Shown: positions 35,595 to 58,022, counted from the stretch's first letter. The stretch: DNA of 64,000 nucleotides from Thermodesulfobacteriota bacterium (GCA_963667625.1 OY763921.1:713963-777962), one strand, 5' to 3'. Notes: a model not told the origin generated them from the letters alone. Program-made: numbers and translations.

Positions 35595-36353
35595 TCAGGT
35601 CGTTTTTTTATTTGCTATCCTGATCCCTCGTATTATCAGGACCGCCGCGGCATATGAAAGGATAATGACGGGTCCGGCAGGCATATCGAACGCTACGGCA
35701 AAGGCGATACCGGAAAGAACCGCCGCCACTCCGCAGAGCCACGCTATAAGATACGGCCTTTTGACGTGTACAGCGGCCAAAGCCGGGAGTATAAGGCTTG
35801 CAAAGACAACATAGACGCCAACCAGTTGAACCGATGAGGTGATGGCGAGAGCGAAGAGCAGGTAAAAGCCCATGTTGCTTCGCACCCCGGGCTTGGAAAA
35901 CCAAGCCAGCAATATCAGCGCGTAAATAGGTGCGTGCTTCGCTACGTCTGTCCATGTTACAAACAGCATCTGTCCCGAAAGCAGGTGCTTTACTTCATCT
36001 CCGCCGTGAGGATGATCGGCGAGGAGCAAAAGCGCCAGGGACGCGGCCAAAATGAAGGCGCATCCTATGATCGCTTCCTGTCGCTCGGGCATTGCCGTTT
36101 CCACCTTGCGGAAAAACAGCCCTGCCGCGACCGCGCAGCCAAGCGCTATGAACTGGATCAGCCACGGGGACGGATCATGGATAACCATGTTGCCGACCAC
36201 AAGCCCGAGTCCCGCAATCTGCGCCACTGCAAGATCAATAAAGATGATGCCGCGGCGGAGCACCTCAATACCAAGAGGAGCGTGTGTGAGCGCGATCATG
36301 AGGCCGGCCGCCACTGCGGGCCCGATTATTTCCAGGAGTTCACTGCCGAACAT
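35595..36353 (-). CDS. Metal ABC-3 family permease (ZnuB/MntB-like)
   Basis: GIEVLRRGIIFIDLAVAQIAGLG, GVYVVFASLILPA; hydrophobic. Confidence 0.88.
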   Translation of the reverse strand: MFGSELLEIIGPAVAAGLMIALTHAPLGIEVLRRGIIFIDLAVAQIAGLGLVVGNMVIHDPSPWLIQFIALGCAVAAGLFFRKVETAMPERQEAIIGCAFILAASLALLLLADHPHGGDEVKHLLSGQMLFVTWTDVAKHAPIYALILLAWFSKPGVRSNMGFYLLFALAITSSVQLVGVYVVFASLILPALAAVHVKRPYLIAWLCGVAAVLSGIAFAVAFDMPAGPVIILSYAAAVLIIRGIRIANKKTT

Positions 36354-37260
36354 CGTATGTCCCTCTCAACAAAGCTATAGTTCTGTCAAACAGCGCGAAC
36401 AGATCGCCGCTTTGCTCGTCACCGCCAACGGTGTAAGGAAGCACGATTGCCCTTGTACCGGTTTTCTCCGACAACCACTCGCTTGCGTCATCAGGATCGG
36501 AAGGGGTACGGATAATTACGTCCGCCGGACTGCTTCTTAACTTTCGCAGCAAATTCTTCAGATGAGAAGTTGTCGGCGGAATGCCGGGTTTTGGTTCAAG
36601 TGTCCCCACTTGCTTTATTCCGAGCCAGTCAATCAGATAAGTAAACGATTTGTGATGAACCACAACCGGTTTTCCTTTAAGTACGGCAGCCTCGGATTCC
36701 CATCGGGAAATCGCCTTGCGCAGGCGGGATGAAAAATCCCGGTAACTATCCTTATAGAAAGAGGCATTTTCAGCGTCGATTCCAGAAAGCCGCTCCGCAA
36801 GCACTTCGCCCACCGTCATCAGGTTGTACGGATTCAGGTGCATGTGGGGGTTGCCTTCCGGATGCACGTCTCCCATGCTGCGGTCAACTACGACCGGAAC
36901 TTCAAGCATGGTGACCAGATCCGCAGCCATAAGGTAACCGATGGAGCCGGGTTGGAGGTCGGAACTTGCCTTCTGAAGCAGAATCGGAAGCCAGCCTATC
37001 TCAAGACTCGCACCCGAGCAGAGGAGCAAATCGGCTTTGCGTGCCTTGGATATCAGGCTTGGACGCGCCCGTATGTAATGGGGGTCCTGTATGGCCGAGG
37101 TAGCTGAAAACGCTTCCACCTTGTCACCGCCTATTTCTTGGGCCAGTGCCGCCCATTCCGGTTCGCAGGCAAATACTTTTACCTTTGCGAAAGAATATGC
37201 CGGGGCCACGAAAAGCAGCCCCGGCAGGAGGATGGAAAGGAAAGTAAGGTAACGTTTCAT
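36340..37260 (-). CDS. Cluster A-I metal-binding protein (ZnuA/TroA family); start reassigned to 37260
   Basis: Signal peptide, QDPH, GDVHPEGNPHMHL, HKSFTYL, EPKPGIPP. Confidence 0.9.
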   Translation of the reverse strand: MKRYLTFLSILLPGLLFVAPAYSFAKVKVFACEPEWAALAQEIGGDKVEAFSATSAIQDPHYIRARPSLISKARKADLLLCSGASLEIGWLPILLQKASSDLQPGSIGYLMAADLVTMLEVPVVVDRSMGDVHPEGNPHMHLNPYNLMTVGEVLAERLSGIDAENASFYKDSYRDFSSRLRKAISRWESEAAVLKGKPVVVHHKSFTYLIDWLGIKQVGTLEPKPGIPPTTSHLKNLLRKLRSSPADVIIRTPSDPDDASEWLSEKTGTRAIVLPYTVGGDEQSGDLFALFDRTIALLRGTYDVRQ

Positions 37261-37273
37261 GCTGCGGTTGCTC

Positions 37274-38707
37274 TTAGTATTTATGCGCGGCGTGGGCACC
37301 TATGCCCATTATGTACTGGAGCAGAATCTGGTTGTCGCTTAGATCCTCTCCTACTTTTTCGTAGTTGTACTGAAGGCGTATACGCGAGAACTCGCTGTTT
37401 GACCAGTCGCCCATGACCGCTACCGCGTAGGGGTCGTGATCTATCCCTGAATCCTCGGGAGAGTATATCTGGGAATAGCGCGTGCCTATTCTCCATTTCG
37501 GCGAGAACTTGAAAACCCCTTGCGCGTACCAGCCATGGCTTCCCCCGTCGAGATGCTCTTCGTGAACTTCGTCTCCTTCCGCAAGAGTATAGATGCCTTC
37601 TTCATCGCGCCAGAAATACTCGCCCTGGAGAAGCACCTCTTTTTCGCGGGCGTTTCCGGTGGGGGCCCACACGTAGCGGAGATCAAGCGCGTAGAGTCTC
37701 GTGTCGCCCGTGAACATGCCGGCGGTGAAGAACTCCTCGAAATCCTCCTCGTGCTCTTCTTCATGTTCTTCCTCATGACCATGCTCGTCTTCGGCGGCAT
37801 GCTCTCCCTCTTCTTCGTGTCCATGAGTGCCGCCACCGCGGCCGCTTGCCTCTCCGTCAAGCAGATACCCCCCGATTCTCCAGGATGAATTCTCTCCTAT
37901 GTCGCCGCCTACCCGCAAGAAGGCGCTGAATGAGTTTATGTCGTTACCCTCAGCTCCCGCAAACGGGAAATCGTCTCCGCGGAAAACACCGCCTCCCGCC
38001 TCGACATAGAAGTCGGTTGGGAGCACGTATGAAATCTGCGCCCCGGTATCGTTAAAGGCCTTGTCGAGAAACACCCTGTATGGCAGGGGGCGGTCGGCGA
38101 AATCGTCAGAGTGGGAGTGATGCTCGTTCAGGTATCCCATAGTCCAGAACGCGCGGCCCATTCTTATGCTTGCTCCCGCTGGAAGCCCGAGGCCGGGAAG
38201 GGTCTCCACGTATGCTTCCTCAAGCTCTATCTCGACCCCGTCTCCATGGTCTGCAAGAGCCGTGGTTATGTGACCGTAGAATTTATCGTCAACGCTTGTC
38301 GAAAAATTAAATTCGGTTTCCCCGAGAGAGATTCCTTCCGCCCCGCGTTCTCCCTCGTGTCCCAGGACAAACCCGGGAATTTCGTCCTCATCCGAAGAAA
38401 AGGCGGCGAATCGTCCGCCCAGTATCGCCCCGATTGAAGGATTGAGGTTCCTGTTGTAGATGACCCTGCTGGGGTAGGCGCTATCCTTGCTCTTCGAGTA
38501 AGTGGTTTTAGCCTGAGATGCTTCGGTTTCCATCTCGGCGAGTTTTTCTTCCATCTTTAAAATCCGGTTCTCATACTCCGATCTCATGGTCTGTATCTCC
38601 TTTCTTAAAGCTTCTATATCCTGGTCGGAAGCGGCAGAGGCGGAGATGTGAGAAAATGGTAAAATGGCAAAAAACGCGGTTATGACCGCGAAACGTAATG
38701 TATTCAT
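37274..38707 (-). CDS. Outer-membrane beta-barrel protein with His/Glu-rich insert (putative metal porin/receptor)
   Basis: Signal peptide, coiled coil, alternating beta-strands, LNEHHSHSDDF, HGHEEEGEH...HEEEHEEEHEE, C-terminal GAHAAHKY. Confidence 0.75.
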   Translation of the reverse strand: MNTLRFAVITAFFAILPFSHISASAASDQDIEALRKEIQTMRSEYENRILKMEEKLAEMETEASQAKTTYSKSKDSAYPSRVIYNRNLNPSIGAILGGRFAAFSSDEDEIPGFVLGHEGERGAEGISLGETEFNFSTSVDDKFYGHITTALADHGDGVEIELEEAYVETLPGLGLPAGASIRMGRAFWTMGYLNEHHSHSDDFADRPLPYRVFLDKAFNDTGAQISYVLPTDFYVEAGGGVFRGDDFPFAGAEGNDINSFSAFLRVGGDIGENSSWRIGGYLLDGEASGRGGGTHGHEEEGEHAAEDEHGHEEEHEEEHEEDFEEFFTAGMFTGDTRLYALDLRYVWAPTGNAREKEVLLQGEYFWRDEEGIYTLAEGDEVHEEHLDGGSHGWYAQGVFKFSPKWRIGTRYSQIYSPEDSGIDHDPYAVAVMGDWSNSEFSRIRLQYNYEKVGEDLSDNQILLQYIMGIGAHAAHKY

Positions 38708-38711
38708 TTTT

Positions 38712-38796
38712 TCCTCCTTAAGTTTAAAAAGAAACTACTGTTTCCCGATTTTGTACTCGGGAAACCCTGAAAAATTTCTTTACTGCTTTAGGAGGA
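38712..38796 (-). promoter_or_regulatory. SD-sequestering nested hairpin downstream of leader ORF 1
   Basis: UCCUCCUAAAG (38786-96) pairs with CUUAAGGAGGA (38712-22); AAAGAAAU (38774-81) pairs with GUUUCUUU (38728-35); inner 9-bp stem at 38740-65. Confidence 0.75.
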
Positions 38797-39072
38797 GAGG
38801 GGAGGTCCGCGGGTGATTCCCGCATCGTAATTGTCCCGAACGATTATAACGTCAGTGGGTGACTGTGGGATGTGTTCCGCATGGCGAAGAACACAGGCCC
38901 CACTCATGGCGCCGGGACTTGTGTAGTCCTGATACTTGGCGTTAAGACAGATCTCGCAGGCAGTTCCCTCATGTTCGTGTTCCAAGGAACCGTACTCGGC
39001 CGCATGGACAAAGGAGAACATCTGCGCTCCCAGGAAAGCGATTGTCAGTAGTAAGGAAAGTGCCTTGCTCAT
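38788..39072 (-). CDS. DUF2946/CutF/CruR-like secreted leader peptide with CxxC and C-terminal RGPP
   Basis: Signal peptide ending VHA, HEHEGTACEIC, ends ITRGPPLSS*. Confidence 0.8.
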   Translation of the reverse strand: MSKALSLLLTIAFLGAQMFSFVHAAEYGSLEHEHEGTACEICLNAKYQDYTSPGAMSGACVLRHAEHIPQSPTDVIIVRDNYDAGITRGPPLSS

Positions 39073-39080
39073 CTTTATTG

Positions 39081-39105
39081 TTAAATGAGAAATATTTTCA
39101 TTTAA
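39081..39105. promoter_or_regulatory. Fur-family operator-like palindrome
   Basis: TTAAATGAGAAATATTTTCATTTAA, 8-bp perfect arms, 8 bp upstream of the leader start codon. Confidence 0.65.
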
Positions 39106-39254
39106 TTTACCTTAGAAAAAAGTGCGGTGTCAATGATGTGAACAAGGTGGAGAGGAAAACATTGGTGTTAAAATCTCTATCAGCTTGTCAAAGATTACAC
39201 AATTGTACCACGGGTATTACACACCACAGTCTCAATTAAGGCTGCTTGCAATAG

Positions 39255-40109
39255 TCAGTCATCCTCGAATTCGATTTCTCGAGCGATTACAGTTCCTGAA
39301 CTTGTTCTCGAGCCTTCGACTTCTATGCGTCTGCCGACGGCGAGGTCATTGGCATTGCCGTGCTCAAAGCGGGTTGAAGAATTGTGTATTACGAGGGTGC
39401 TGCCGAGAAGGAAGGATTGGGAGTCAACAATGCTGGTGATTCTGCCCTCAATTTCATAGTAATCATCATAATAATTGTCATCATCGTCGTCGTTATTATG
39501 GTAGTAATCATCGTCATATTCTCCATCCTCGAACTCGATTTCTCGGGCTGTTATGGTTCCCGAACTTGTTCTTGAGCCTTCGACTTCTACGCGTCTGCCG
39601 ACGGCGAGGTCATTGGTGTTGCCGTATTCAAAGCGGGTGGAGGAATCATGCGTTATCAGGGTGTTGCCCAGGAAAAAGGAACGAGAATCAACAATGCTGG
39701 TGATTGCGCCCTCGATCTCGTAATAGCCCTCGTAATCATCGTCGTAGTCTCCATCCTTAAATTCAATCTCTCGAGCTGTGGCGGTTCCCGGAGTTATTCT
39801 TGAGCCTTCGACTTCTACGCGTCTGCCGACGGCGAGGTCATTGGCGTTACCGTATTCAAAGCGGGTTGAGGAGTCGTGAATTATGAGGGTGCTGCCAAGA
39901 AAGAAGGACTGGGAGTTAACAATGCTTGTGATTGGGCCCTCGATCTCGTAATTGGAAGCGATATTTCTTAACCCCGTGTCAGTCTGTTCTGTAGGTCTTG
40001 CTGTATCGTTTGTTTCTGTGTTGTCGGTATTTCCACCGCTACAGGCTATCGCACCGAGCATGAGTAGCAAAGCTACAACTGCTAACCTTAGAGAATTGTT
40101 GATTAACAT
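39255..40109 (-). CDS. Lipoprotein with three DUF5666-like repeats
   Basis: Lipobox GAIAC; three 66-aa repeats (YEIEG.IT...FEYG...LAVGRRVEVEG...AREIEF). Confidence 0.8.
   Translation of the reverse strand: MLINNSLRLAVVALLLMLGAIACSGGNTDNTETNDTARPTEQTDTGLRNIASNYEIEGPITSIVNSQSFFLGSTLIIHDSSTRFEYGNANDLAVGRRVEVEGSRITPGTATAREIEFKDGDYDDDYEGYYEIEGAITSIVDSRSFFLGNTLITHDSSTRFEYGNTNDLAVGRRVEVEGSRTSSGTITAREIEFEDGEYDDDYYHNNDDDDDNYYDDYYEIEGRITSIVDSQSFLLGSTLVIHNSSTRFEHGNANDLAVGRRIEVEGSRTSSGTVIAREIEFEDD
39261..39950 (-). repeat. Three ~198-bp intragenic direct repeats
   Basis: Units 39753-39950, 39525-39722, 39261-39458 share long identical DNA runs such as GAGCCTTCGACTTCTA(C/T)GCGTCTGCCGACGGCGAGGTCATTGG. 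Confidence 0.9.
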
Positions 40110-40315
40110 ATGTCACCTGCTCAATTTTCTTTCTAGTTATATTATACTTCTCTAATATTCTGGGTGCAACTTTCTTGAGCATTCTATTGTCGCCTCTCTT
40201 TCTGCTGGAATTTGCGGAAAGCTTAGATGGATGGATTCAACCCCCGTCCGTTCTGTTGAGTATCTTCACTGTTTGAGTAACATTACCGCCACGCATCGAC
40301 TTATCGGAGGTTAAA

Positions 40316-41317
40316 GTGAGCGGAAGACCCATTCTGGTTACCGGAGACAGGCCGACCGGGAAACTTCATTTAGGACACCTTGTGGGTTCGCTTCAAAACC
40401 GCATCAGGTTTCAGAGCGAATACGACTGCTTTTTTCTGGTTGCCAACCTCCACATGCTTACCACCCATTACGACAGGGCCGTAGAGGTTGAGGAAAACAC
40501 TATCGAGATGGTGTGCGACTGGCTTTCTGTGGGAATGGACCCTGAGAGCTCGGTTTTCTATGTCCAGTCCCAAGTGCCGCAGATAACTGAACTCTCAACC
40601 ATACTCTCGATGCTTTGCCCCGTGCCGAGACTCCAGAGAATCCCCACCCTTAAGGAGAAAATTCAGGATATGGGAGTGGGGGACAACTATTCGGCCGGGC
40701 TTCTCGGATACCCCGTGCTCATGGCGGCCGACATACTGATGTTCCGGGCGACCAAAGTTCCGGTGGGCGAAGACCAGCTCAGTCACGTGGAGCTCACAAG
40801 GGAGCTTGCCAGGAGGTTTAATTTCCTCTACGGCGATTACTTCGGGGAGCCTGAACCGCTCATCAGCGAAGCGTCCCGCCTCGTAGGGACCGACGGGAAC
40901 AGGAAGATGAGCAAGAGCCTTAACAACTGCATATACCTCAGCGACAGCGAGAAGGAAGTTGAGAGTAAGGTAAGGAGTATGTATACAGACCCGAAGAGAA
41001 TAAGGGCCGACATACCGGGCACCGTGGAAGGCAACCCGGTTTTTATCTACCACGATCTTTTCAACGACGATGCCTCGGAAATTGAGGATCTCAAGGACCG
41101 CTACAGGACCGGAAACGTCGGGGATGTCGAGGTGAAGAAGAAACTCGCCCGCGCCATAAATCTCCTCCTTGAGCCCATCAGGGAAAAAAGAGCGCAGTAC
41201 GAAGGAAGGACGGACGAGGTAAGGGACATACTCCATGAGGGGACTCTCAAGGCGAAGCGGATAGCCGAAGAGAACATGGAGGAGATAAAGGAGAAGGTTG
41301 GTCTTTTCCGTACGTAG
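40316..41317 (+). CDS. trpS: Tryptophan--tRNA ligase
   Basis: [35 protein letters not shown]. Confidence 0.97.
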
Positions 41318-41420
41318 GTCCCCGCGTGTTTGTTGACAGAGACGCGGTCTGTTCTATATCCTGCTTAAATAAATTGTTTGTGTTTAAGGCGTTTTTCGCG
41401 ACGGAAGAGGATATAGCAAG

Positions 41421-42620
41421 ATGAACTCCATCGAAGAAATTATTGATGACGTAAAACAGGGCAACCTCGTAATACTGGTTGATGACGAAGACAGGGAGAA
41501 CGAGGGAGATTTCGTCATACCCGCCGAGAATGCTACTGCGGAAATGATCAATTTTATGGCCACTCATGGCCGCGGTCTTATCTGTCTCTCCCTTACCCAG
41601 GAAGACGCTAACCGTCTGTCTCTTCAGCCCATAAAGCCCGAGTACAACGAAGCCCCCGAGCACACGGCTTTCACCGTGCCCATAGATGCGAAAAAGGGAG
41701 TTACGACCGGCATATCAACCCATGACAGGGCCTCAACGATAAGACAGGCGATATCACAGAATTCCAGACCTGAGGATTTCGTGCGTCCCGGACACATTTT
41801 TCCGCTTATAGCGAAAAAGGGAGGGGTGCTTGTCCGTGCCGGCCACACGGAGGGCTCAGTCGACATATCGCGGCTGGCGGGTTTCCACCCGGCGTCGGTT
41901 ATCTGTGAGATAATGAAGGAAAACGGTGACATGGCGCGTCTTGAAGACCTGATGGCTTTCTCCGAAAAGCACGGCATAAAGATCGCCACTATTGCCGATC
42001 TGATAAGGTACAGGATAGGCAAGGAGAGTTTCGTGCGAAGGGTGGCCGAGGCGGAAGTGCCTACAGAATATGGGGTTTTCCGTGCCATCGCTTTTGAAAA
42101 TGAAATAGACGGTCTTCAGCACATGGCCTTTGTGAAGGGGAAACTCAGCCCCGAGGAGGGGACACTCGTAAGGGTGCACTCCGACTGTGCCATAAGCGAT
42201 ATTTTCGGTTCGCTTTACTGCCACAGCAGGGCAAAGCTCATCCAGTCCCTAAAGATGATAGAGGCAAACGGCTCCGGGGTTCTTGTTTACATAAACCAGG
42301 AGTCAAGCAACGGGGGATTCGCGAAAAAGATAACGCGCTATTCAAACGGAAAAATAAGGGAGGCGCCCGCGCTTGTTCCCGAAAGGCAGGAACTCAAAGC
42401 GGAACTCAGGCATTACGGAGTGGGAGCCCAGATACTCAGGGATCTTGGAGTGCGCGACATAAGGCTTCTCACTAACAATCCGATAAAGGTAAAGGGGCTT
42501 GAAGGATTCGGGCTCAGAATGGTAGGGAGCGTTCCCATAGACATTTCGGATTACAGGGAAAAGGAAATTGCCATGGGAAAAAGCGCGGATTACGGTAATA
42601 TTGTTTCAATATCAAAGTAA
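41421..42620 (+). CDS. ribBA: DHBP synthase fused to a degenerate GTP cyclohydrolase II domain (RibBA/RibBX)
   Basis: DDEDRENEGD, GHTE, ICEI; RVHSDC...CHS, YGVGAQIL, LLTNNP. Confidence 0.88.
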   Translation: MNSIEEIIDDVKQGNLVILVDDEDRENEGDFVIPAENATAEMINFMATHGRGLICLSLTQEDANRLSLQPIKPEYNEAPEHTAFTVPIDAKKGVTTGISTHDRASTIRQAISQNSRPEDFVRPGHIFPLIAKKGGVLVRAGHTEGSVDISRLAGFHPASVICEIMKENGDMARLEDLMAFSEKHGIKIATIADLIRYRIGKESFVRRVAEAEVPTEYGVFRAIAFENEIDGLQHMAFVKGKLSPEEGTLVRVHSDCAISDIFGSLYCHSRAKLIQSLKMIEANGSGVLVYINQESSNGGFAKKITRYSNGKIREAPALVPERQELKAELRHYGVGAQILRDLGVRDIRLLTNNPIKVKGLEGFGLRMVGSVPIDISDYREKEIAMGKSADYGNIVSISK

Positions 42621-42631
42621 GAGGGGAGCAG

Positions 42632-43099: not shown

Positions 43100-43108
43100 A
43101 TTTTCCAG

Positions 43109-48118: not shown

Positions 48119-48209
48119 CGGTGAGATGGCTTTTTTCGAGCTGTAACTAGTCGCCGGGGATTTTTCCTCTCTAAAGTTTCGCGGTTTTCCCGACGCGGTT
48201 TCTGAATTC

Positions 48210-48237
48210 TTGACAGATCAAAAGAACTTGTAATAAT
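48210..48237 (+). promoter_or_regulatory. Sigma70-like promoter of the act operon
   Basis: TTGACA-N16-AATAAT with TG extension. Confidence 0.5.
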
Positions 48238-48263
48238 ACTAGCCGATCGAATTTACTTCCTGA

Positions 48264-48896: not shown

Positions 48897-48910
48897 GCCG
48901 GAGGGGATAT

Positions 48911-51850: not shown

Positions 51851-53181
51851 TGAGCCAGACGCAGCAGACACCTTTAACTTACGCGAGAATAACTGAAGAT
51901 GTAGTCAGGATGGTTGACAAGCCGTCCAAGAAGTGGTGGGCTCTTTTCCTTCCCACAGTGGCGCTCGTGGGACTCGGTGTCACGTGCTTTTTCTATCAGG
52001 TAGCTACGGGACTTGGAGTCGCCGGCTACCGTCACCCGGTTTTCTGGGGAGTCTACATAACCGATTTCGTTTTCTGGGTTGGAATAGCGCACTCCGGGAC
52101 CCTTATCTCGGCCATACTTTATCTTTTCCGCGCCAGGTTCAGGATGTCCATATACAGAATCGCCGAGGCCATGACGGTCTTCGCGGTTCTAACGGCAGGA
52201 CTTTTTCCCATAATTCACCTCGGAAGACCGTGGAACTTCCTGTGGCTAATCCCTTATCCCAATTCAAGGGAGCTGTGGATAAACTTCAAGTCGCCGCTTG
52301 TCTGGGACGTGTTTGCTGTAAGTACTTATCTTACCGTAAGCTCGGTGTTTTTCCTGGTCGGAATGATTCCCGATATCGCTGCGATAAGGGACAAGGTGAA
52401 GGAAACTCCGAGGAAGATCATATACTCGATTCTTTCCTTCGGATGGAAAGGGTCAAACAAGGAATGGCTTCACTACACAAGGGCCTATCTTTATTTCGCG
52501 GCCCTCGCCACGCCTCTTGTCCTCTCGGTTCACAGCGTCGTGTCCTGGGACTTCGCGATGGGTAACGTTCCCGGATGGCACACCACAATATTCCCGCCGT
52601 ACTTCGTTGCGGGAGCTATTTTCTCGGGACTTGCGATGGTTATCACGCTTACCGTACCGATAAGGAAGATTTTCCATCTCGAGGACTACATAACGCTTGA
52701 TAACTATGACGGCATGGCGAAGCTCATAATTTTTACTTCCTGCATAGTCGGCTACGCGTACGCGGCGGAATTCTTTATGGCATGGTACAGCGGAAGTCCT
52801 TATGAGTGGGGACAGTTCGTTTACAGGGCAACCGGAGAGTACGCGCCTTTCTACTGGACGATGGTGATATGCAACTGCTTCGTTCCCATAGTGCTCTGGT
52901 GGGAGAGCGTGAGAAAGAACATAAAGGCCCTTTTCGTCATATCCATACTGATAAACATAGGAATGTGGTTCGAGCGGTTCAATATCATCGTCATATCGCT
53001 TTCGAGAGATTTTGAGCCCGGCGCGTGGGGCATATACAAGATATCGTTTGTCGAGGCCGGCATAACGATCGGAAGTTTCGCATGGTTCTTCATGTTCTTC
53101 TTGCTGTTCGTGAAGACTCTTCCGGCAGTTTCCATAGCGGAGATGAAAGAAATACTTCCGGTGCCGAAGAAGGGAGGTTAG
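51850..53181 (+). CDS. actC: Alternative complex III ActC (NrfD family quinol-binding subunit)
   Basis: FVFWVGIAHSGTLISA, HLGRPW, SPLVWD, SVHSVVSWDF, PGWHTTIFPPYFVAGA. Confidence 0.93.
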   Translation: MSQTQQTPLTYARITEDVVRMVDKPSKKWWALFLPTVALVGLGVTCFFYQVATGLGVAGYRHPVFWGVYITDFVFWVGIAHSGTLISAILYLFRARFRMSIYRIAEAMTVFAVLTAGLFPIIHLGRPWNFLWLIPYPNSRELWINFKSPLVWDVFAVSTYLTVSSVFFLVGMIPDIAAIRDKVKETPRKIIYSILSFGWKGSNKEWLHYTRAYLYFAALATPLVLSVHSVVSWDFAMGNVPGWHTTIFPPYFVAGAIFSGLAMVITLTVPIRKIFHLEDYITLDNYDGMAKLIIFTSCIVGYAYAAEFFMAWYSGSPYEWGQFVYRATGEYAPFYWTMVICNCFVPIVLWWESVRKNIKALFVISILINIGMWFERFNIIVISLSRDFEPGAWGIYKISFVEAGITIGSFAWFFMFFLLFVKTLPAVSIAEMKEILPVPKKGG

Positions 53182-53187
53182 CAGGAA

Positions 53188-53694
53188 ATGGATCAGGGCG
53201 TAGTCGGAATTTACTCATATCAGGATTCGGTTCTTTCGGCCGTGGAGAAACTCAAGGAAGCGGGTTACCGCAACATGAGGGTTTTCTCCCCGTTTCCAGA
53301 CCACGAAATTGAGGCGGCGGTTGATCTGCCTGAGAGCCCGGTACGGTTTTTTACCCTCTTCGGCGGTCTGCTGGGAGCGACCTGCGGAGTCGGTTTTACG
53401 GTTCTTACTTCAAGTGCCTGGCCGATAGCGGTGAGCGCCAAACCTATAGTTTCGATACTTCCCTACATGGTCATCGTTTTTGAGCTTACGGTGCTTTTCG
53501 GTGCGCTTTCAACCTTTTTGGGGCTGATAATAAATTCCCTTATAAGGCAGAGAACCCCGGTGAGGCTTTATGACGAGCGTTTTTCGGATGACAAGTTCGG
53601 CGTCGCCGTTATATGCGAGAAGGAAAAAATAGGTGCGGTTGAAGCGATATTAAATTCTACGGGAGCTGAAGAAATCAAGTTTGATGAAGCATAG
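53188..53694 (+). CDS. actD: Alternative complex III ActD (DUF3341)
   Basis: FSPFP, FELTVLFGAL, RFSDDKF. Confidence 0.9.
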   Translation: MDQGVVGIYSYQDSVLSAVEKLKEAGYRNMRVFSPFPDHEIEAAVDLPESPVRFFTLFGGLLGATCGVGFTVLTSSAWPIAVSAKPIVSILPYMVIVFELTVLFGALSTFLGLIINSLIRQRTPVRLYDERFSDDKFGVAVICEKEKIGAVEAILNSTGAEEIKFDEA

Positions 53695-54265
53695 AAAGTT
53701 TTCTCGGACAGTTCCGGGGGGATCCCGGGTTCTCAATTTTTCTTTGAGACTGAAAGTGTGCGTGGCGGTTGTTTTTGCGGTCGCGCTTTCGCTTTCTTCC
53801 GCCCATTCGCTTCCCTGGTCTTGGGACATGTGGTCTCAGGACTCGATCAAGCCCTACGAAGAACCCGTGATTTTTCCTCGCAACTCGATTTCCACCGACG
53901 GCGAGAAAACAAAACTTGGGGACAGAAGCAAGGTCGAGCTTATAGAGAAGGCCCCGGTTACCCGAAGCGGCGAGTCGGTTGCCAGGGGAGAGAAGGTTTA
54001 CAAGGAGCAGTGCGCCGTGTGCCACGGTCCCGGGGGATTGGGAGACGGAATCATAATAAAGAAAGGACTAGGCTTTTACCCGGTCAACCTTACCACGCCG
54101 GCCGTAGCGCAGAGAACAGACGGTTACATCTATGCCTACATACGCTACGGGGGCAAGGTGATGATGCCTTCTTACAGTGAGAACATATCGGAACAGGACG
54201 CGTGGCACGTGGTCAATTACGTGAGAAAGCTTCAGAACCCGGGTTCTGTGAAGGAGAATCAATAG
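53681..54265 (+). CDS. actE: Alternative complex III monoheme cytochrome c ActE
   Basis: CAVCH, GKVMMPSY, WHVVNYVRKLQ. Confidence 0.88.
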   Translation: MMKHRKFSRTVPGGSRVLNFSLRLKVCVAVVFAVALSLSSAHSLPWSWDMWSQDSIKPYEEPVIFPRNSISTDGEKTKLGDRSKVELIEKAPVTRSGESVARGEKVYKEQCAVCHGPGGLGDGIIIKKGLGFYPVNLTTPAVAQRTDGYIYAYIRYGGKVMMPSYSENISEQDAWHVVNYVRKLQNPGSVKENQ

Positions 54266-54269
54266 CAAA

Positions 54270-55448
54270 ATGGATCAGTCCGTAAACCAGGAGATACTAG
54301 CGAAAAGAAACCAGATACCTAAATGGGTATTCATGGTTTTTGTCGCTCTTGCGATTGTGGGTGCCGGAGCTTTCGTGATTAACGCCAGGGGCGAGAAGGC
54401 CGAAGAGGTCTGGCAGCTTTTCTTGGTGAATTTTCTTTTCTGGACGGGAGTGGCCCAGGGCGGCCTTGTGTTCTCCTGCATACTGAGGATAACCAACGCC
54501 AGATGGGGCAGGGGGCTTCTTCGCATAAGCGAGGGGTTTGCGAGCTTTACCATAGTCTCCTTCGTGCTTCTGCTTGTTCTTTTCATCGGACAGGAATTTG
54601 TTCTTCCCTATGCGCATCATCACTACCACAGCCCCAAGGACATATGGCTTAACATGAATTTCGTGATGGCGAGAAACGTTATAGGTTTCGCAGGACTTTT
54701 AGTGCTTAATTATTTCTACCTGAAAACATCCATACGCCAGGACCTTGATGGCAGGGAAAACATTGTAAAGTTAAAGAAGCTTGCCCCTGCGGTAATCGGG
54801 GTCTACGTTCTTGTTTTCTCCCTTTTCGCCTGGGATTTCATGATGTCGCTTGATCCTCACTGGTTCAGCACGCTTTTCGGGCCCTACTATTTCATGGGAA
54901 GCCTGATAGCTGCCATAGGGGCGACTATAATACTTTCGGTTCCCATCAAGCGTTATCTGGGACTTGATGAGTATCTTTCTCTTCATCATTACTGGGATAT
55001 GGGAAAGATACTTCAGGGTTTTTCTCTTTTCTGGGTTTACCTCATGTTCTCCCAGCTTCTTACGATCTGGTACGCGAACATGCCTGAAGAGACCGGGTTT
55101 GTGATAAAAAGGGTGGTGGATGAGCCTTTCCGCTCGTTTGCCTGGGCTATTCTCACATGCTGCTTCATATTTCCTTTTGTCTCCCTGCTTCCCCGCACGC
55201 ACAAGATAGTTACCCCGATAGCTGTCTTTATCGCTACGGTTTCTTTCTCGGGACTCTGGATGGACAAGTTCCTGCTGATCATCCCCTCGCTTACAAGCGA
55301 GCTGGTTTTCAGCATCAATCACTTCCTGATCACCCTGGGTTTTCTTGCCGGATTCGTGGCGACATTTCTTATGTTTGTAAACAGGTTCCCGGTAATACCT
55401 TTCGGCGACCCGTACTTTGACGGAAAATCGAAGGGAGGAGGGCATTGA
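54270..55448 (+). CDS. actF: Alternative complex III ActF
   Basis: MSLDPHWFSTLFG, DMGK, FWVYLMFSQ...IWYANMPEE. Confidence 0.92.
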   Translation: MDQSVNQEILAKRNQIPKWVFMVFVALAIVGAGAFVINARGEKAEEVWQLFLVNFLFWTGVAQGGLVFSCILRITNARWGRGLLRISEGFASFTIVSFVLLLVLFIGQEFVLPYAHHHYHSPKDIWLNMNFVMARNVIGFAGLLVLNYFYLKTSIRQDLDGRENIVKLKKLAPAVIGVYVLVFSLFAWDFMMSLDPHWFSTLFGPYYFMGSLIAAIGATIILSVPIKRYLGLDEYLSLHHYWDMGKILQGFSLFWVYLMFSQLLTIWYANMPEETGFVIKRVVDEPFRSFAWAILTCCFIFPFVSLLPRTHKIVTPIAVFIATVSFSGLWMDKFLLIIPSLTSELVFSINHFLITLGFLAGFVATFLMFVNRFPVIPFGDPYFDGKSKGGGH

Positions 55449-55449
55449 G

Positions 55450-55599
55450 ATGAAGCTTACACCTGAGCAGCTTGACAAAATAGTTCTTCTTTTCACCGTG
55501 AAAGTTGCTATCGGCATCGCGGCTTTTATGGGCATAGTGGCTACCGTAGCGCTTTTCGGCACCAAGATAGCTCCATTGATGGGCAAACTTCCCTGGTAA
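55450..55599 (+). CDS. Small single-TM protein at the end of the act operon, 49 aa
   Basis: ATG 1 nt after the actF stop; hydrophobic core VLLFTVKVAIGIAAFMGIVATVALF. Confidence 0.65.
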   Translation: MKLTPEQLDKIVLLFTVKVAIGIAAFMGIVATVALFGTKIAPLMGKLPW

Positions 55600-55732
55600 C
55601 CCCGATCTCACTCCCGTTGTGCCTAAACTAGGCGCGATAGAACATCTATTGAGACGCCTCGGTCGAAACCAGATATAATTTCCGCGCGGGTTTTTCCCGT
55701 TTTTCTTAAATATATCTTCTAAGGAGTTTTCC

Positions 55733-56083
55733 ATGTCCAAAGACGCCGAAATCAAGCTGAGGGTAGTCCTAGGGGAGGACGATATTCCCGAGGAGCTTTT
55801 CTGGCAGGCTTCCCAGGCTCAGGAACCTGGGGAGAAGCGCTGCGAGGCGGCTTTTCTTTCCATGTGGGATGCCGAGAAAAAGGAATCCCTGGTAGTAGAT
55901 CTTTGGACCAAGAAAATGGAAGTGGGGGAAATGAACTACCATTTCTACTATACGATGATGAAAATGGCCGACACATATGAAAGAGCTACCTCCGAGAAGC
56001 AGATATCGAACAGAATGAGAGAATTCGCAGGCGAGTTCGCCCAGATGATTCAGGAGTCTTTGGGAAGCCAGAAAAATTCCTGA
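55733..56083 (+). CDS. gldC: GldC family protein
   Basis: PEELFWQA, FLSMWD...VDLWTKKMEVGEMN.HFY.TM..MADTYERAT. Confidence 0.75.
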   Translation: MSKDAEIKLRVVLGEDDIPEELFWQASQAQEPGEKRCEAAFLSMWDAEKKESLVVDLWTKKMEVGEMNYHFYYTMMKMADTYERATSEKQISNRMREFAGEFAQMIQESLGSQKNS

Positions 56084-56111
56084 CCAACCTCCCTAGCGCT
56101 TTGCAGGCTAA

Positions 56112-56139
56112 GGAAATGCCGGTTTTCTCCGACATTTCC
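56112..56139. terminator. Hairpin between convergent gldC and the merT-like gene
   Basis: GGAAATG-c-CGG-ttttct-CCG-a-CATTTCC; no clear U-tract. Confidence 0.45.
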
Positions 56140-56162
56140 CTAATCTCAAGACCCAAAAGAAA

Positions 56163-56558
56163 TCAGTAAAAAACTCTCGCGGCTATAAAAGCGAAGAAAA
56201 AGCCTACGAGCCATAGAAGCACGGATAGCAGATATATCCAGTTGCTTGTCTTTCGTAATCTGGCACATGCCATTGCCTGCGCCGGGTCAATCGGGCAGGG
56301 AGCGTTTCTTGACCTCCAAAGCGCGACTCCGGCGATTAGAAGCATTGCGCCGGAGATTCCGAACGTCCAGATCTTGTATTTTGACAACGCGATCAGCCAG
56401 GGTGCGGTTCCTACGATTCCCGCCAGAACCGCGCCGGCTCCGATCGTCACTAATAATGCGGGAAGGGCGCAGCACACAAGGGTTCCAGCGGACGTAAGCA
56501 GACTGAGCGAGGGGAGAAGCGTTTGCTTCACTCCATATCCGGGATTCGTGTTATCCAT
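56163..56558 (-). CDS. MerT/MerC-like inner-membrane metal transporter (start reassigned to 56558)
   Basis: TLVCCALP in TM1, loop CPIDPAQAMAC, three TM segments. Confidence 0.75.
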   Translation of the reverse strand: MDNTNPGYGVKQTLLPSLSLLTSAGTLVCCALPALLVTIGAGAVLAGIVGTAPWLIALSKYKIWTFGISGAMLLIAGVALWRSRNAPCPIDPAQAMACARLRKTSNWIYLLSVLLWLVGFFFAFIAARVFY

Positions 56559-56934
56559 GCTCGCACCCCCTCTGAATGGCATTCACGTTGTACCCGGAGT
56601 CCGTGATAAGCTTCGTAAGCGTTGCATCGTCAATGGTCAATCCGGGCTTCGTAGCTACAGCTACGAAGCCTTTGCCGAGATCAACCTTGATTCCCGCAAC
56701 ATCGCCGCGTTTCAGGAAGACTTTTTCCAGGGAACGAGCGCAGAAATCGCATACAAGCCCGCTGACCTTGATATTGATTGTGTCTTCACATGCGGCGTTT
56801 TCCATGTCGTTTGAAGCGGCGGAGGGCTCTACCACCTGACCTTCATGGTTATGTTCGTGTTCTCCATGTTGCGCATGGCTATGGAGCGCGAAAAAAAGTG
56901 TCATAAAAAGAATTGCGGTGATTGATATTTTCAT
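56551..56934 (-). CDS. Periplasmic HMA-domain (MerP/CopZ-like) chaperone with His-rich N-terminus
   Basis: Signal peptide, HSHAQHGEHEHNH, KVSGLVCDFC. Confidence 0.85.
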   Translation of the reverse strand: MKISITAILFMTLFFALHSHAQHGEHEHNHEGQVVEPSAASNDMENAACEDTINIKVSGLVCDFCARSLEKVFLKRGDVAGIKVDLGKGFVAVATKPGLTIDDATLTKLITDSGYNVNAIQRGCEHG

Positions 56935-56944
56935 AGTTTTCTCC

Positions 56945-57592
56945 TTAAAATCTTATTATTAAATTGAACAAAATCCCACCTTTGTCGCTGATTCCGACCT
57001 CAACGAGATACTCGTTCTTAAAAAACCGTACAAGAGGCGTAACCGAGATGTTATCTCTCTCCCCCGTGATGTGGTCAACTTGCAGCATGAGCCAGGTGTG
57101 GAGATCGCCGTAGTCCCCGATATAAGGGGCGATTCCCACTCGCGCTTTCTGCCTGAAGAACTTCGCTATGTCTTCGGCGTAGTAGACGCGGTTCTCATAG
57201 CTCGTAAAGTACCGTCGAGTTTCCCAGTCAAGGGCTATATCGGCAAAGGCGGCGAGCTGGGGTTCGCTGTCGGGCACTCCAAGATCACCGTGAGCTGTGC
57301 CAAGGCCGCCTTTAAGATAGAAGTTTGCCTGCGAGGCTGGCGCGTTGTGGCGCTTCACCAGATAGTTAAGCTGCGCGCCGTGGAACTGCCAATTCTCCTC
57401 GCGCCAGTATTCGGTTCTGTATCCTATCGAATACTTAGCCGTCGGCGAATAATGAACGTGAAGAGAATGCGCGTTCTTGTCGTTTTTCTGCATGACCGTC
57501 CAGCCGCCCGGATACGAGACCGGACGAGACAGGGACTGGGGAGCGTATCCCATCAGGATCACGCAACATAAAGTGAAAACTGTTAATTTCAT
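56945..57592 (-). CDS. Putative small outer-membrane beta-barrel (start reassigned to 57592)
   Basis: RBS AGGAGG; signal peptide; alternating aromatic strands; C-terminal Phe (FNLIIRF). Confidence 0.65.
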   Translation of the reverse strand: MKLTVFTLCCVILMGYAPQSLSRPVSYPGGWTVMQKNDKNAHSLHVHYSPTAKYSIGYRTEYWREENWQFHGAQLNYLVKRHNAPASQANFYLKGGLGTAHGDLGVPDSEPQLAAFADIALDWETRRYFTSYENRVYYAEDIAKFFRQKARVGIAPYIGDYGDLHTWLMLQVDHITGERDNISVTPLVRFFKNEYLVEVGISDKGGILFNLIIRF

Positions 57593-57597
57593 GTTTC

Positions 57598-57678
57598 CTC
57601 CTGAGTATCGATTATGGCCTGGCGACGCCGAAGCGAAGCCGTTTATAGCGCGCGGGCGCGCGCAAGTTTGCTCAGGAG
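57598..57678 (-). promoter_or_regulatory. SD-sequestering multibranch structure downstream of leader ORF 2
   Basis: CUCCUGAG (57671-78, spanning the leader stop) is the exact complement of CUCAGGAG (57598-605, the RBS); encloses a GCGCGC stem (57648-63) and a cUUCGg hairpin (57621-40). Confidence 0.75.
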
Positions 57679-58022
57679 AGGCGTTTTGGAGGTCGGAAAT
57701 GGGTTTCGATCTGGCGGGAGGACAGAAGCTGATCGGCAAGAATTCCGACAGCAGTTCCCCCATGATGATCTTTTAATTCTTCAAGTGGCAGTGCGTTTGT
57801 CTGGACACAATGCTGGCAATCACAGCCATCGCATTGATCGGAGCTTCTATCTTCCGAATCTTTTGTTTCATGGCATGGCATGTCCATGTCGGCGTCCATC
57901 TGTATTTCGGCGGAAGCCTTGTCCATGTTCATTGGACATGTGGAGAAAGCGTTCGCCATGCCGCCGGTAAAAAACAATGCGACAAATGTTACCAGTAGTA
58001 CTGTTGTTTTAATGGTGTCCAT
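57672..58022 (-). CDS. CopL/DUF2946-like secreted Met/Cys/His-rich leader ending FRPP
   Basis: Signal peptide ending ANA, MDADMDMPCH, CDGCDCQHC, ends HFRPPKRLS*. Confidence 0.75.
   Translation of the reverse strand: MDTIKTTVLLVTFVALFFTGGMANAFSTCPMNMDKASAEIQMDADMDMPCHETKDSEDRSSDQCDGCDCQHCVQTNALPLEELKDHHGGTAVGILADQLLSSRQIETHFRPPKRLS

Follow-up and report, generated by a model that had tools for sequence, protein, structure and literature searches.

Two metal-transporter cassettes headed by putative CutF/CruR/CopL-type leader peptides in a Thermodesulfobacteriota genome

Organization and cargo of the two cassettes

The analysed window, a stretch of 64,000 nt from Thermodesulfobacteriota bacterium (GCA_963667625.1 OY763921.1:713963-777962), contains two gene cassettes on the minus strand, cassette A (35595-39072) and cassette B (56163-58022). 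Within the span 35595-58022, some 17 kb between them (39.3-56.1 kb) is occupied by unrelated genes. Each cassette begins with a small ORF (leader A or leader B), and the features of both are collected in Table 1.

Table 1. Genes and RNA or DNA elements of cassettes A and B
Feature	Coordinates	Strand	Evidence
Divergent ABC-3 (ZnuB-like) permease	35595..36353	-	ABC-3 match 37+34 bits
ZnuA-family periplasmic metal-binding protein	36340..37299	-	PF01297 E 2e-37; AztC E 7e-19
477-aa outer-membrane protein, 16-strand porin-like barrel	37274..38707	-	structure model pLDDT 60
SD strand A, CUU-A-AGGAGGA, 4 nt before porin ATG	38712..38722	-	sequence, fold
Spacer hairpin A, 9 bp, inside long tail-to-SD stem	38740..38765	-	fold; compensatory changes at 3 pairs
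Anti-SD strand A, UCCUCCU-A-AAG (Ser93, Ser94, stop codon and 2 nt)	38786..38796	-	fold; cognate tail:SD covariation, 15 loci
Leader A, 94 aa	38788..39072	-	23 genus homologues; family of 98 cluster representatives; linked to PF11162
23-bp palindrome TAAATGAAAATATTTCTCATTTA, putative Fur-family-like operator	39081..39105	.	conserved upstream of leader copies across genus
Sigma-70-like promoter TTGACA-18-TAAATT before leader A	39104..39133	-	10/12 consensus positions match
MerT-like three-helix inner-membrane protein	56163..56582	-	PF02411 sub-threshold; conserved in cassettes L073-L078
Exported HMA-domain protein (GLVCDFC), His-rich N-terminus, MerP/CopZ-like	56551..56934	-	weak HMA match
215-aa 12-strand outer-membrane beta-barrel	56945..57592	-	structure model pLDDT 86.8
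SD strand B, CUCAGGAGG, 4 nt before barrel ATG	57597..57605	-	sequence, fold
Anti-SD strand B, UCUCCUGAG	57671..57679	-	fold; covariation
Leader B, 116 aa	57672..58022	-	CopL_fam sub-threshold matches

In cassette A, the porin carries a coiled coil at its N-terminus, a conserved NEHHxHxDDF motif and a His/Glu-rich loop specific to Dadabacteria, and the best structural matches of its model are OprO/OprP/OmpT (E 2e-9, TM about 0.5). Alignment of the ZnuA-like binder to PsaA predicts a His-His-His-Asp ligand set, with His where PsaA has Glu205. The permease reaches 37+34 bits for ABC-3, whereas the canonical ABC-3 genes at another site of the genome score 223 and 155 bits. A ZnuABC-type importer comprises a binder, a permease and a co-encoded ATPase, and here the first two are present while the ATPase is absent. 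No Walker-A/LSGGQ ATPase is encoded in the 64-kb window, and no Walker-A/LSGGQ ORF was found within ±6 kb in 7 loci from 3 phyla. About 135 kb away, the genome encodes a canonical ATPase together with two ABC-3 permeases. A cargo of porin, ZnuA-like binder and ABC-3 permease without ATPase is new and unusual for this type of leader. Cassette A may encode a Zn-type uptake chain.

In cassette B, structure comparison relates the 215-aa barrel to KdgM/NanC/invasin-beta-like proteins, and its homologues number more than 1,400, with no Pfam family that covers them. The MerT-like protein carries CC in TM1 and a C-x9-C loop. Cassette B shares only Cys-pair motifs with Mer-type transport: the MerT score is 15.6 versus 32.9 bits, the MerP match has E 0.066, and no reductase or MerR is adjacent to the cassette. 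The cargo of 12-strand barrel, HMA protein and MerT-like protein is new and likewise unusual. The Met/Cys ligands of cassette B together with its HMA and MerT-like proteins suggest a Cu(I)-type thiophilic metal.

Sequence features of the leaders

Leader A starts with a signal peptide or anchor (aa 1-24; K3, hydrophobic core, AxA-type VHA/A), continues with the metal-type motif H23..E26..H32-x-H34, C39-E-I-C42 (CxxC at 38947-38958), and ends in R88-G-P-P91 (38800-38811) and L-S-S-stop (CUC UCC UCC UAA), with PP three residues from the end. The palindrome TAAATGAAAATATTTCTCATTTA overlaps or follows the -10 element and is 8 nt ahead of the start codon. Among the 23 genus homologues, C39, C42 and G-I-T-R-G-P-P are invariant and the 45-aa spacing is constant, while the middle region is variable. 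The wider family has 98 cluster representatives of about 94 aa, and 89 of them contain xxPP near the C-terminus (RAPP in 76, RGPP in 12). The spacing from the first Cys to Arg is 48 ± 1 in most members (77 of 84), and PP is followed by three (52 members) or five residues (24 members). Across phyla the N-terminal motif H..AEHG..HEH.G..C is strongly conserved, and the central 40 residues are almost unconstrained while R(G/A)PP is invariant.

As a small exported protein with a C-terminal, invariant RGPP and a co-directional downstream gene, leader A has the attributes of RAPP/RGPP arrest peptides, and it follows the CxxC-~45-RAPP-3 layout of DUF2946/CruR (invariant in the genus, ±1 in the wider family). 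PF11162 (DUF2946) matches neither leader A nor leader B even at E 10. In the wider leader A subfamily 4 of 56 members are matched, and one member (25.5 bits) exceeds the gathering score of 23.7 bits, with an alignment that starts at the Cys motif and extends as far as the terminal RAPP. Leader A is a peripheral DUF2946 relative, linked transitively via these subfamily members and carrying the hallmark 45-residue CxxC-to-R(G/A)PP spacing.

Leader B has a signal peptide at aa 1-25 (K5, hydrophobic core, ANA/F), three metal-type motifs (C29-P-M-x-M; M-D-M-P-C50-H; C64xxC67xC69xxC72 at 57807-57833), and the C-terminus F-R-P-P (P111-P112, 57687-57692) and K-R-L-S-stop (CUC UCC UGA), which places PP four residues from the end. 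C29, C50, H51 and C64 are invariant in its genus family, which also has a CxCxxC cluster. PP is also invariant, within a conserved PPK motif, and the preceding residue varies (R/Q/H/S/Y), which sets leader B apart from RAPP/RGPP peptides. It also departs from the DUF2946/CruR layout of CxxC-~45-RAPP, with 38 residues and a non-conserved Arg. Since Arg is not conserved, its PP would act as an ordinary polyproline pause. Against CopL_fam (NF033807), leader B scores 19.9 bits, below the 40-bit cutoff. The same is true of 16 of 21 genus members, whose matches are near-full-length though sub-threshold, and the alphaproteobacterial L073 leader reaches 26.9 bits. Leader B is a sub-threshold CopL relative.

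The 1.86-Mb genome was scanned for ORFs with a signal peptide, CxxC and R.?PP within the last 9 residues, and exactly two were found, leaders A and B, whose signal peptides were called by inspection and a simple pattern. About 0.11 ORFs with all three features are expected under independence, and five Markov-shuffled genomes gave 1, 0, 0, 0 and 0. Every element that the preliminary description of this DNA listed for both cassettes (leader motifs, anti-SD tail, spacer, barrel, binder and membrane protein) is present, and the leaders indeed lack other visible similarity, with homology undetectable by hhalign (probability 0.7%). Its shared R(x)PP holds for PP but not for the Arg, given the variation in the leader B family.

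Pairing between leader tails and downstream SD sequences

Anti-SD strand A begins 9 nt after the first Pro codon. Anti-SD strand B (UCUCCUGAG) spans the final two bases of the Leu115 codon, the whole of Ser116 and the UGA stop, and a single nt (G) beyond it. Spacer A is 80 nt with a 9-bp hairpin and spacer B is 79 nt with two hairpins. In both cassettes the minimum-free-energy folds close by the tail:SD helix, UCCUCCU.AAG with CUU.AGGAGGA in A (z -4.0) and UCUCCUGAG with CUCAGGAGG in B (z -1.9). SD pairing probability is not discriminating alone, as the genome background has a median of 0.74, with A in the top 0.8% and B in the top 16%.

The tails also co-vary with their own SDs. Cognate tail:SD duplexes have energies of -11.45 versus -9.05 kcal/mol for permuted ones in A (15 loci, permutation p 5e-5) and -12.75 versus -9.72 kcal/mol in B (p 1.4e-4), a signal that comes from a modest number of distant lineages, both helix strands being nearly invariant within the genus. 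For five lineages, the cognate pairing of B is the best of 120 permutations. The co-varying tail/SD pairs include UCCUCCU/AGGAGGA, UUCUCCUAA/UUAGGAGAA, UUAAUUCCU/AGGAAUUAA, CUUUGAUUU/AAAUCAAAG and UUUCCUAAAU/AUUUAGGAAA. Tails ending in xFS-stop and in xFLLS-stop in the leader A family both place UU(U)CUCCU in one and the same register relative to PP, and the distance of the anti-SD is kept constant from PP, not from the stop codon. An anti-SD inside the coding tail of the leader, at a fixed distance from PP, is new.

Distribution and mobility

Leader A was found in 32 of 36 genomes of the Candidatus Dadabacteria genus and leader B in 31 of 36, and the cassettes as a whole are likewise conserved in the genus. 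The leader-porin-ZnuA-ZnuB operon also occurs in MAGs of Proteobacteria, Rickettsiales and Planctomycetes, and cassette B in Alphaproteobacteria. Mobility of the leader module can be seen directly in the relative G039, which has two copies (92% identical) of a 516-bp unit made up of operator, leader, spacer, SD and signal-peptide codons, one before the porin gene and the other before znuA. One Rickettsiales MAG has cassette B without the leader, and another MAG has an A-type leader ahead of a P-type-ATPase-like gene. These cases support the modular character that had been proposed earlier.

Relationship to known systems

Leaders A and B appear to be new, unannotated members of a leader-peptide switch type described in 2021-2025 (CutF, CruR, CopL), and form two new, Pfam-negative subfamilies. 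The CutF-like/DUF2946 design is already published (PMC9973294, PMC9426467, PMC12992588), so the cassettes are not an undescribed system, for which they had been named the best candidate. The idea of a modular arrest-peptide family is supported as regards a diverse set of small exported peptides with metal motifs, a proline stall, an SD-masking helix and different cargo. Ozturk et al. 2023 defined a set of 5,334 "CutF-like" proteins, grouped into 29 clusters and with CutF, CruR and CopL among them, with distinct Cys/His motifs, not all Cu-specific, and diverse in metal and cargo (PMC9973294). [quoted passage not shown]

CutF of Rhodobacter capsulatus (cutFOG; PMC8456105, PMC9973294; bioRxiv 10.1101/2025.02.05.636593) is likewise a small Sec-exported peptide with a Cys/His motif and a C-terminal proline stall, and acts in cis before a short intergenic region where an anti-SD stem-loop shields the SD of the next gene; the cutO anti-SD stem-loop was demonstrated by mutation (PMC9973294). 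However, CutF has CxxxC, a PPP-type EF-P-dependent stall (RGPP in leader A) and a multicopper oxidase cargo for detoxification, with copper inducing the stall, whereas the cargo of leaders A and B is an outer-membrane barrel, then a binder and an inner-membrane protein. Its anti-SD is intergenic, while that of leaders A and B is in the last codons and stop codon.

Leader A shares with CruR (Bp2923, Bordetella pertussis, DUF2946/PF11162) the order of export signal, CxxC, 45 residues, R(A/G)PP, three residues and stop, and both head metal-uptake operons (a predicted one in the case of leader A) whose first cargo gene encodes an outer-membrane protein, a porin for leader A and a TonB-dependent transporter for CruR. 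CruR has a 162-nt spacer (cruR-bfrG), Rho-dependent termination and copper sensing, in contrast to the 80-nt spacer, SD masking, His-rich motif and Zn-type binder of cassette A. CruR control depends on CxxC/RAPP, and spacing mutants were also made by Roy et al. 2022 (PMC9426467). Leader B resembles CopL (Xanthomonas/Stenotrophomonas, NF033807), a secreted small Met/Cys/His-rich protein heading a copper-type operon. CopL precedes copAB (multicopper oxidase and outer-membrane protein), whereas leader B precedes the 12-strand barrel, HMA and MerT-like genes, and its family scores 20-27 bits against the 40-bit CopL cutoff. The action of CutF (PMC9973294) and CruR (PMC9426467) is confined to cis, and neither can be detected as a protein; CopL also acts only in cis (PMC9973294).

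Arrest by RGPP/RAPP, with enrichment upstream of metal genes, was shown by Fujiwara et al. 2025, and RGPP is the strongest and most avoided arrest tetrapeptide, EF-P-refractory and with Pro-Pro occupying the P and A sites at the stall (PMC12992588). SecM, MifM, ApdA and ApdP similarly combine C-terminal R-A/G-P-P-type arrest at the peptidyl-transferase centre, force relief and downstream SD unmasking, but they monitor the Sec or YidC export machinery rather than metal and share no sequence with leaders A and B outside the motif.

Proposed mechanism and alternative explanations

The anatomy, conservation and spacing of both leaders are observed, as are their RNA pairing and covariation. Each cassette is quite probably headed by a regulatory leader peptide of the CutF/CruR/CopL type, for which we infer arrest, metal dependence, metal identity and direction of control. 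The N-terminal hydrophobic segment would target the leader to the Sec translocon. The metal-binding motif directly after it (His/Glu/Cys in A, Met/Cys/His in B) would be separated by a linker of fixed length (45 residues in A, 37-41 in B) from the C-terminal Pro-Pro stall site, and so lie about one exit tunnel plus one translocon from the peptidyl-transferase centre. The 3-4 codons after PP and the stop codon would form one helix strand, and the SD of the first cargo gene the other. A ribosome pausing on PP would cover or unwind the anti-SD strand, starting 9-12 nt downstream of the P-site codon, so that the SD would be exposed and the barrel gene and its coupled genes turned on; after a short pause the leader would terminate, the helix re-form and the cargo be off. 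How long the pause lasts would depend on whether metal is bound to the leader while it is nascent and partly exported. Leader B fits this model less well, because its anti-SD begins 12 nt past the P-site codon and the helix would be only partly opened by a ribosome held at PP.

Cassette A, with a strong RGPP, a Fur-family-like operator and a His3Asp ZnuA-like binder, may be ON by default, with metal releasing the arrest and turning it off, and such a switch would join CruR logic to the SD-unmasking output of CutF. Sensing by leaders A and B would be periplasmic. For CruR, however, the signal peptide was reported to be dispensable for sensing and the output to depend on Rho (PMC9426467), which leaves both "periplasmic" sensing and "SD-unmasking" uncertain for leaders A and B.

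Alternatively, the leaders could be ordinary mature periplasmic or membrane-anchored metal-binding proteins (chaperones or CopL-like regulators), with the tail:SD helix serving constitutive translational coupling without metal-regulated arrest. The cross-phyla conservation of H..AEHG..HEH.G..C fits a metal site in a finished protein, a helix overlapping the stop codon would be opened by any terminating ribosome, and leader B lacks an RAPP-type motif. Simple coupling, however, would need neither a Cys-to-PP spacing fixed to about ±1 residue nor an anti-SD distance held from PP instead of the stop codon. It is also at odds with an invariant R(G/A)PP amid an almost unconstrained centre, RGPP being the most avoided and strongest arrest tetrapeptide, and with the homologous CutF and CruR being cis-only and undetectable as proteins, and we regard it as unlikely. 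The output could also be mainly transcriptional, a stalled ribosome blocking Rho or an attenuator hairpin and its release causing termination before the barrel gene, with SD masking secondary. CruR, which shares the CxxC-45-RAPP-3 layout of leader A, acts through Rho, and the hairpin of spacer A followed by a U-rich run was flagged as terminator-like. Yet this U-run begins 6-8 nt past the hairpin and takes part in base pairing in the minimum-free-energy fold. At 79-80 nt, versus 162 nt in cruR-bfrG, the spacers are short and almost wholly folded into a stem ending on the SD, and the cross-phyla tail:SD covariation shows selection on SD masking itself; a mainly transcriptional output is quite unlikely. 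Chance resemblance of two unrelated small ORFs with a hydrophobic start, CxxC and PP near the stop has in its favour that the motifs are short and that one of five shuffled genomes gave such an ORF. It is effectively refuted by the comparative data, as each of the two proteins is conserved in about 31 of the 36 genomes of the genus and also occurs in other phyla, ahead of the same cargo genes and with covariation in the RNA pairing.

Within the CutF/CruR/CopL-type reading, a narrower and tentative possibility, which we think rather doubtful as a whole, is that the leader A subfamily (about 94 aa, with H.AEHG..HEH.G..C, about 45 aa, R(A/G)PP and xFS-stop) comprises arrest peptides that sense zinc or another non-copper divalent metal where the translocon faces the periplasm, and gates a conserved, ATPase-less porin/ZnuA-like/ABC-3-like uptake route in several phyla. 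If this is true, metal sensing by nascent chains would no longer be limited to copper, and cassette A would point to a substrate-binding-protein-dependent importer without a dedicated nucleotide-binding subunit.

Organization of the two cassettes

Cassettes A and B both lie on the minus strand and are separated by about 17 kb of unrelated sequence. Each begins with a leader, a small putatively secreted metal-motif peptide ending near a C-terminal Pro-Pro (PP), and its last codons plus stop codon (the tail) form an anti-SD to the ribosome-binding site (SD) of the following barrel gene. Leader A reads signal peptide, HAAEYGSLEHEHEGTAC39EIC42, 45 residues, R88GPP91 and L-S-S-stop; leader B reads signal peptide, CPMNMD..MDMPCH..C64DGCDCQHC72, 38 residues, P111P112 and K-R-L-S-stop, with both signal peptides assigned by inspection.

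Genes of cassettes A and B in window coordinates
Feature	Position	Strand	Basis
Leader A, 94 aa	38788-39072	-	window ORF
477-aa outer-membrane protein, cassette A	37274-38707	-	structure model
ZnuA-family binder, cassette A	36340-37299	-	PF01297, E 2e-37
Divergent ABC-3 permease, cassette A	35595-36353	-	ABC-3 model match
Leader B, 116 aa	57672-58022	-	window ORF
215-aa outer-membrane protein, cassette B	true start 57592	-	structure model
Exported HMA protein, cassette B	56551-56934	-	
MerT-like three-helix protein, cassette B	56163-56582	-	

Window ORFs and RNA folds agree with the anatomy given for both cassettes in the preliminary description, and its outer-membrane barrels are borne out by modelled structures of both proteins. 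The cassette A barrel is modelled with moderate confidence (pLDDT 60) as a 16-strand, porin-like structure preceded by an N-terminal coiled coil, with OprO/OprP/OmpT as top structural matches. The cassette B model is a confident 12-strand barrel (pLDDT 86.8) resembling KdgM, NanC and the invasin beta-domain. Alignment of the cassette A binder to PsaA places His where Glu205 stands, giving a predicted His-His-His-Asp ligand set; its top named NCBIfam match is AztC, and both leader A and the porin are His-rich. In cassette B the ligand residues are Met/Cys in the leader; its HMA protein contains GLVCDFC, and its MerT-like protein has both CC and a C-x9-C loop.

Directly upstream of cassette A lies a triple-DUF5666 lipoprotein gene with Asp/Tyr-rich linkers (39255-40109, minus strand), adjacent in the related genome G039 too, and 70 nt downstream of the permease gene lies one for a DUF1272 Cys-rich protein (35259-35525, minus strand).

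The region upstream of leader A (39081-39133) contains a promoter-like TTGACA-18-TAAATT followed by the 23-bp palindrome TAAATGAAAATATTTCTCATTTA. This Fur/Zur-box-like (Fur-family-like) element overlaps the promoter, lies 8 nt ahead of the start codon and is kept upstream of leader A copies across the genus, which suggests a tier of transcriptional control above the leader switch. For leader B, the upstream region yielded no sigma-70-like promoter.

As the preliminary description held, the cassette A permease has no obvious energiser: no Walker-A/LSGGQ ORF occurs anywhere in the window, nor within +/-6 kb of cassette A at seven loci from three phyla (L063, L064, L066-L068, L071, L072). A canonical ATPase (genome 887.6-888.3 kb) with two ABC-3 permeases is encoded about 135 kb away, the three genes together covering 887.6-890.3 kb. 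Judged by ABC-3 model scores (37+34 bits, against 223 and 155 bits for the canonical pair), the cassette A permease is much the more divergent.

Conservation and modularity of the leaders

The preliminary description had proposed comparing the leader pattern with shuffled controls. Exactly two ORFs in the 1.86-Mb genome, leaders A and B, have a signal-peptide-like start together with CxxC and an R.?PP within the final nine residues, in excess of the 0.11 expected under independence and the 1, 0, 0, 0 and 0 found in five Markov-shuffled genomes. A looser genome scan (signal peptide, PP tail and >=6 Cys/His/Met residues) gave no credible third leader. Far stronger evidence against chance than this count is conservation: leader A is present in 32 of the 36 genus genomes and leader B in 31 of 36, and at E 1e-3 neither was detected in the rest of the phylum.

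In leader A, C39, C42, G-I-T-R-G-P-P and their spacing are invariant in the genus, and the central part of the sequence drifts. Leader B conserves its Cys/Met/His positions and PP, with [x]PPK[RHAP][LI]S* (asterisk, stop) as the family tail; the residue before PP is R, Q or H among genus members, and Alphaproteobacteria have S or Y there. The 'R(x)PP' once described as common to both leaders is therefore really a common PP, as the Arg varies in the leader B family. Profile-profile comparison detected no homology between the two families (hhalign probability 0.7%), in keeping with the earlier remark that they share no other visible similarity, so the leaders are analogous and not paralogous.

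Leader A occurs twice, about 2 kb apart, in some 20 of the 32 genus genomes that carry it. G039 (locus L063, G039:C18) contains a duplicated 516-bp unit (5243-5760 and 7270-7786; 92% identity), one copy before the porin gene and one before znuA, each including the palindromic box, leader, spacer, SD and first ~30 signal-peptide codons. The window genome has a single leader A, arranged as in Proteobacteria. In a Rickettsiales MAG (L070, 5998-9626), an A-type leader (..LHMAEHGF..RAPPHFS*) is followed by no porin cassette; the next genes are a His-tailed ORF of 95 aa and a P-type-ATPase-like gene of 949 aa with a GDGENDQ motif. The proposed modular family with different specificities is correct, though already known from CutF-like proteins.

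Pairing between leader tails and ribosome-binding sites

In both cassettes, a helix between the last codons plus stop codon and the SD of the barrel gene closes the minimum free energy fold of the stretch that runs from the leader tail to the start codon. This helix pairs UCCUCCU.AAG with CUU.AGGAGGA in cassette A (-34.3 kcal/mol, z -4.0) and UCUCCUGAG with CUCAGGAGG in cassette B (-35.0 kcal/mol, z -1.9). Two hairpins also occur in the cassette B spacer (57593-57671), one GC-only and one capped by cUUCGg; both are kept across the genus, with a few compensatory changes.

SD pairing probability was uninformative against 253 genes with a GGAGG SD (background median 0.74), so it was replaced by cognate-versus-permuted duplex energies. 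Misaligned SD columns kept RNAalifold from recovering the tail:SD helix in the genus alignment of A.

Across lineages, the tail and its own SD change together in both families. In the A family, the tail/SD pairs are UCCUCCU/AGGAGGA (window), UUCUCCU/AGGAGAA (L012), UUCUCCUAA/UUAGGAGAA (L072), UUUUCUCCU/AGGAGAAAA (L066) and UUAAUUCCU/AGGAAUUAA (L069); in the B family they are CUCUCCUGAG/CUCAGGAGG (window), UCUCCUG/CAGGAGA (L073), CUUUGAUUU/AAAUCAAAG (L075), CUCUCCU/AGGAGAG (L077) and UUUCCUAAAU/AUUUAGGAAA (L078). Cognate duplexes are the more stable, at -11.45 against -9.05 kcal/mol for permuted ones in A (15 loci; p 5e-5), and -12.75 against -9.72 kcal/mol in B (10 loci; p 1.4e-4); for five independent B lineages the cognate assignment ranks first of all 120 permutations. 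Since both helix strands are nearly invariant within the genus, this signal is drawn from a modest number of distant lineages.

The A-family anti-SD starts 8-9 nt past the first Pro codon, and its distance to PP is kept but that to the stop codon is not. Tails ending xFS* and xFLLS* both encode UU(U)CUCCU in one register, so conservation of the residues past PP is best read as an RNA constraint. A CCUCC within the Pro-Pro codons was also considered as anti-SD. Throughout the genus the first Pro is encoded by CCU, but the PP codons of other phyla are CCC/CCG, and CCUCC is thus not the conserved pairing.

Wider families and related loci

Searched against 1.8 billion cluster representatives, the leader A profile retrieved 98 proteins, nearly all of about 94 aa, with the consensus M..K..L.L..FL..Q..S..HMAEHGF..HEH.G..C (~45 variable residues) PRAPPxFS*. 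Among the 89 with xxPP near the C-terminus, 76 carry RAPP and 12 RGPP, and the tail past PP has three residues in 52 and five in 24; the first Cys and the Arg are 48 +/- 1 apart in 77 of 84 members. Pfam DUF2946 matches 4 of 56 members, one above threshold with an alignment running from the Cys motif to the RAPP end. PF11162 (DUF2946) matched neither the leaders nor anything else in the genome even at E 10, so direct membership is not claimed; as wider-family members do match, leader A is best placed as a peripheral relative of DUF2946 with that family's hallmark layout. Two long repeat proteins (P0119, 2749 aa; P0153, 1196 aa) each match profile positions 33-71 13-15 times, probably through a repeated Cys/Thr-rich domain unrelated to the leaders.

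A leader followed by a porin gene was found at six loci in Proteobacteria, Rickettsiales and Planctomycetes MAGs. Five have the full leader/porin/ZnuA-like/ABC-3-like operon, and the sixth (L069) lies on a contig that stops directly behind the porin gene. At L067 (6285-6617), the post-leader SD is masked by a perfect 8-bp tail helix and precedes a short ORF whose start resembles a signal peptide, the porin gene starting only ~330 nt downstream; this may be a remnant of rearrangement.

The cassette B barrel has >1,400 homologues at ~60% identity, and the leader/barrel/HMA/MerT-like operon also occurs in Alphaproteobacteria (L073, L075, L077, L078). A Rickettsiales MAG (L076) carries barrel, HMA and MerT-like genes without any leader ORF, with a nitroreductase gene and a MerR-family gene downstream. 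In the alphaproteobacterial MAG locus L078 (~1880-1900), the PPP codons of the B-type leader contain an 11-C run that is a phase-variable tract or else a sequencing error; removing a single C gives a frame that ends in the family tail ..SPPPRPIS* and allows a perfect 10-bp tail:SD helix. Leader B and its homologues score 19.9-26.9 bits against NCBIfam CopL_fam (cutoff 40 bits) with nearly the full model length aligned, and 16 of 21 genus leader B members give such a sub-threshold match.

Discussion

The design of these leaders is a published one. In CutF, a Sec signal and a CxxxC motif are combined with a proline-rich C-terminus; the stem-loop that comes next carries an anti-SD shielding the SD of cutO, and CutF becomes dispensable when the anti-SD is mutated (PMC9973294). 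CutF-like proteins have varied Cys/His motifs and are not all copper-specific (PMC9973294; bioRxiv 10.1101/2025.02.05.636593). CruR regulation works via Rho and requires CxxC, RAPP and the spacing between them, and the DUF2946 layout of Roy et al. is CxxC, 45 residues, RAPP and three residues to the end (PMC9426467); leader A has this CxxC-45-R(G/A)PP-three-residue layout in common with DUF2946/CruR. RGPP is the strongest arrest motif, EF-P-refractory, with Pro-Pro in the P and A sites at the stall, and small secreted proteins encoded upstream of metal genes show an enrichment of it close to their C-terminus (PMC12992588). ZnuA and MerT returned nothing in the supplement of PMC9973294, and literature searches on CopL as an arrest peptide and on MerT/copper uptake found nothing productive.

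Both leaders fall within the operational CutF-like definition; neither reaches a curated HMM threshold. Given this and the design published for CutF, CruR and RGPP arrest peptides, the claim of an undescribed system fails. The observation in the preliminary description stands, and its interpretation is supported in part. Leaders A and B are two new, unannotated members of the known CutF/CruR/CopL leader-peptide class, with uncharacterised cargo.

In the mechanism we propose, pausing of a ribosome on PP would occlude or melt the anti-SD strand and so make the SD accessible, and the helix would re-form upon release and termination. In length, the linker (45 residues in A, 37-41 in B) roughly equals one exit tunnel and one translocon together, so that at the stall the metal motif, which directly follows the hydrophobic segment, would be located at the periplasmic face. 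This placement fits the CutF model, although CruR is reported to be independent of its own signal peptide.

Cassette A resembles a Zn-type uptake system, given its predicted His-His-His-Asp binder, AztC match, His-rich leader and porin, and Fur-family-like palindrome. Because RGPP is intrinsically strong, the cassette would be ON by default and shut off once metal releases the arrest. For cassette B, the Met/Cys ligands, GLVCDFC and the CC plus C-x9-C loop point to Cu(I) or another thiophilic metal, and the leader B stall may be weaker and EF-P-sensitive, as its Arg is not conserved.

The ATPase-less ZnuA/ABC-3/porin cassette poses a separate transport question. As for the leaders, Pfam-negative genes of an uncultured, reduced-genome Candidatus Dadabacteria lineage are here placed among the co-translational metal sensors (CutF/CruR/CopL), and the class is thereby extended to two widely conserved, uncharacterised transport cassettes. 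That tail and SD co-vary across phyla supports, on comparative grounds, SD masking as an output general to this class, and the constant spacings between metal motif and PP and between PP and anti-SD offer concrete geometric predictions.
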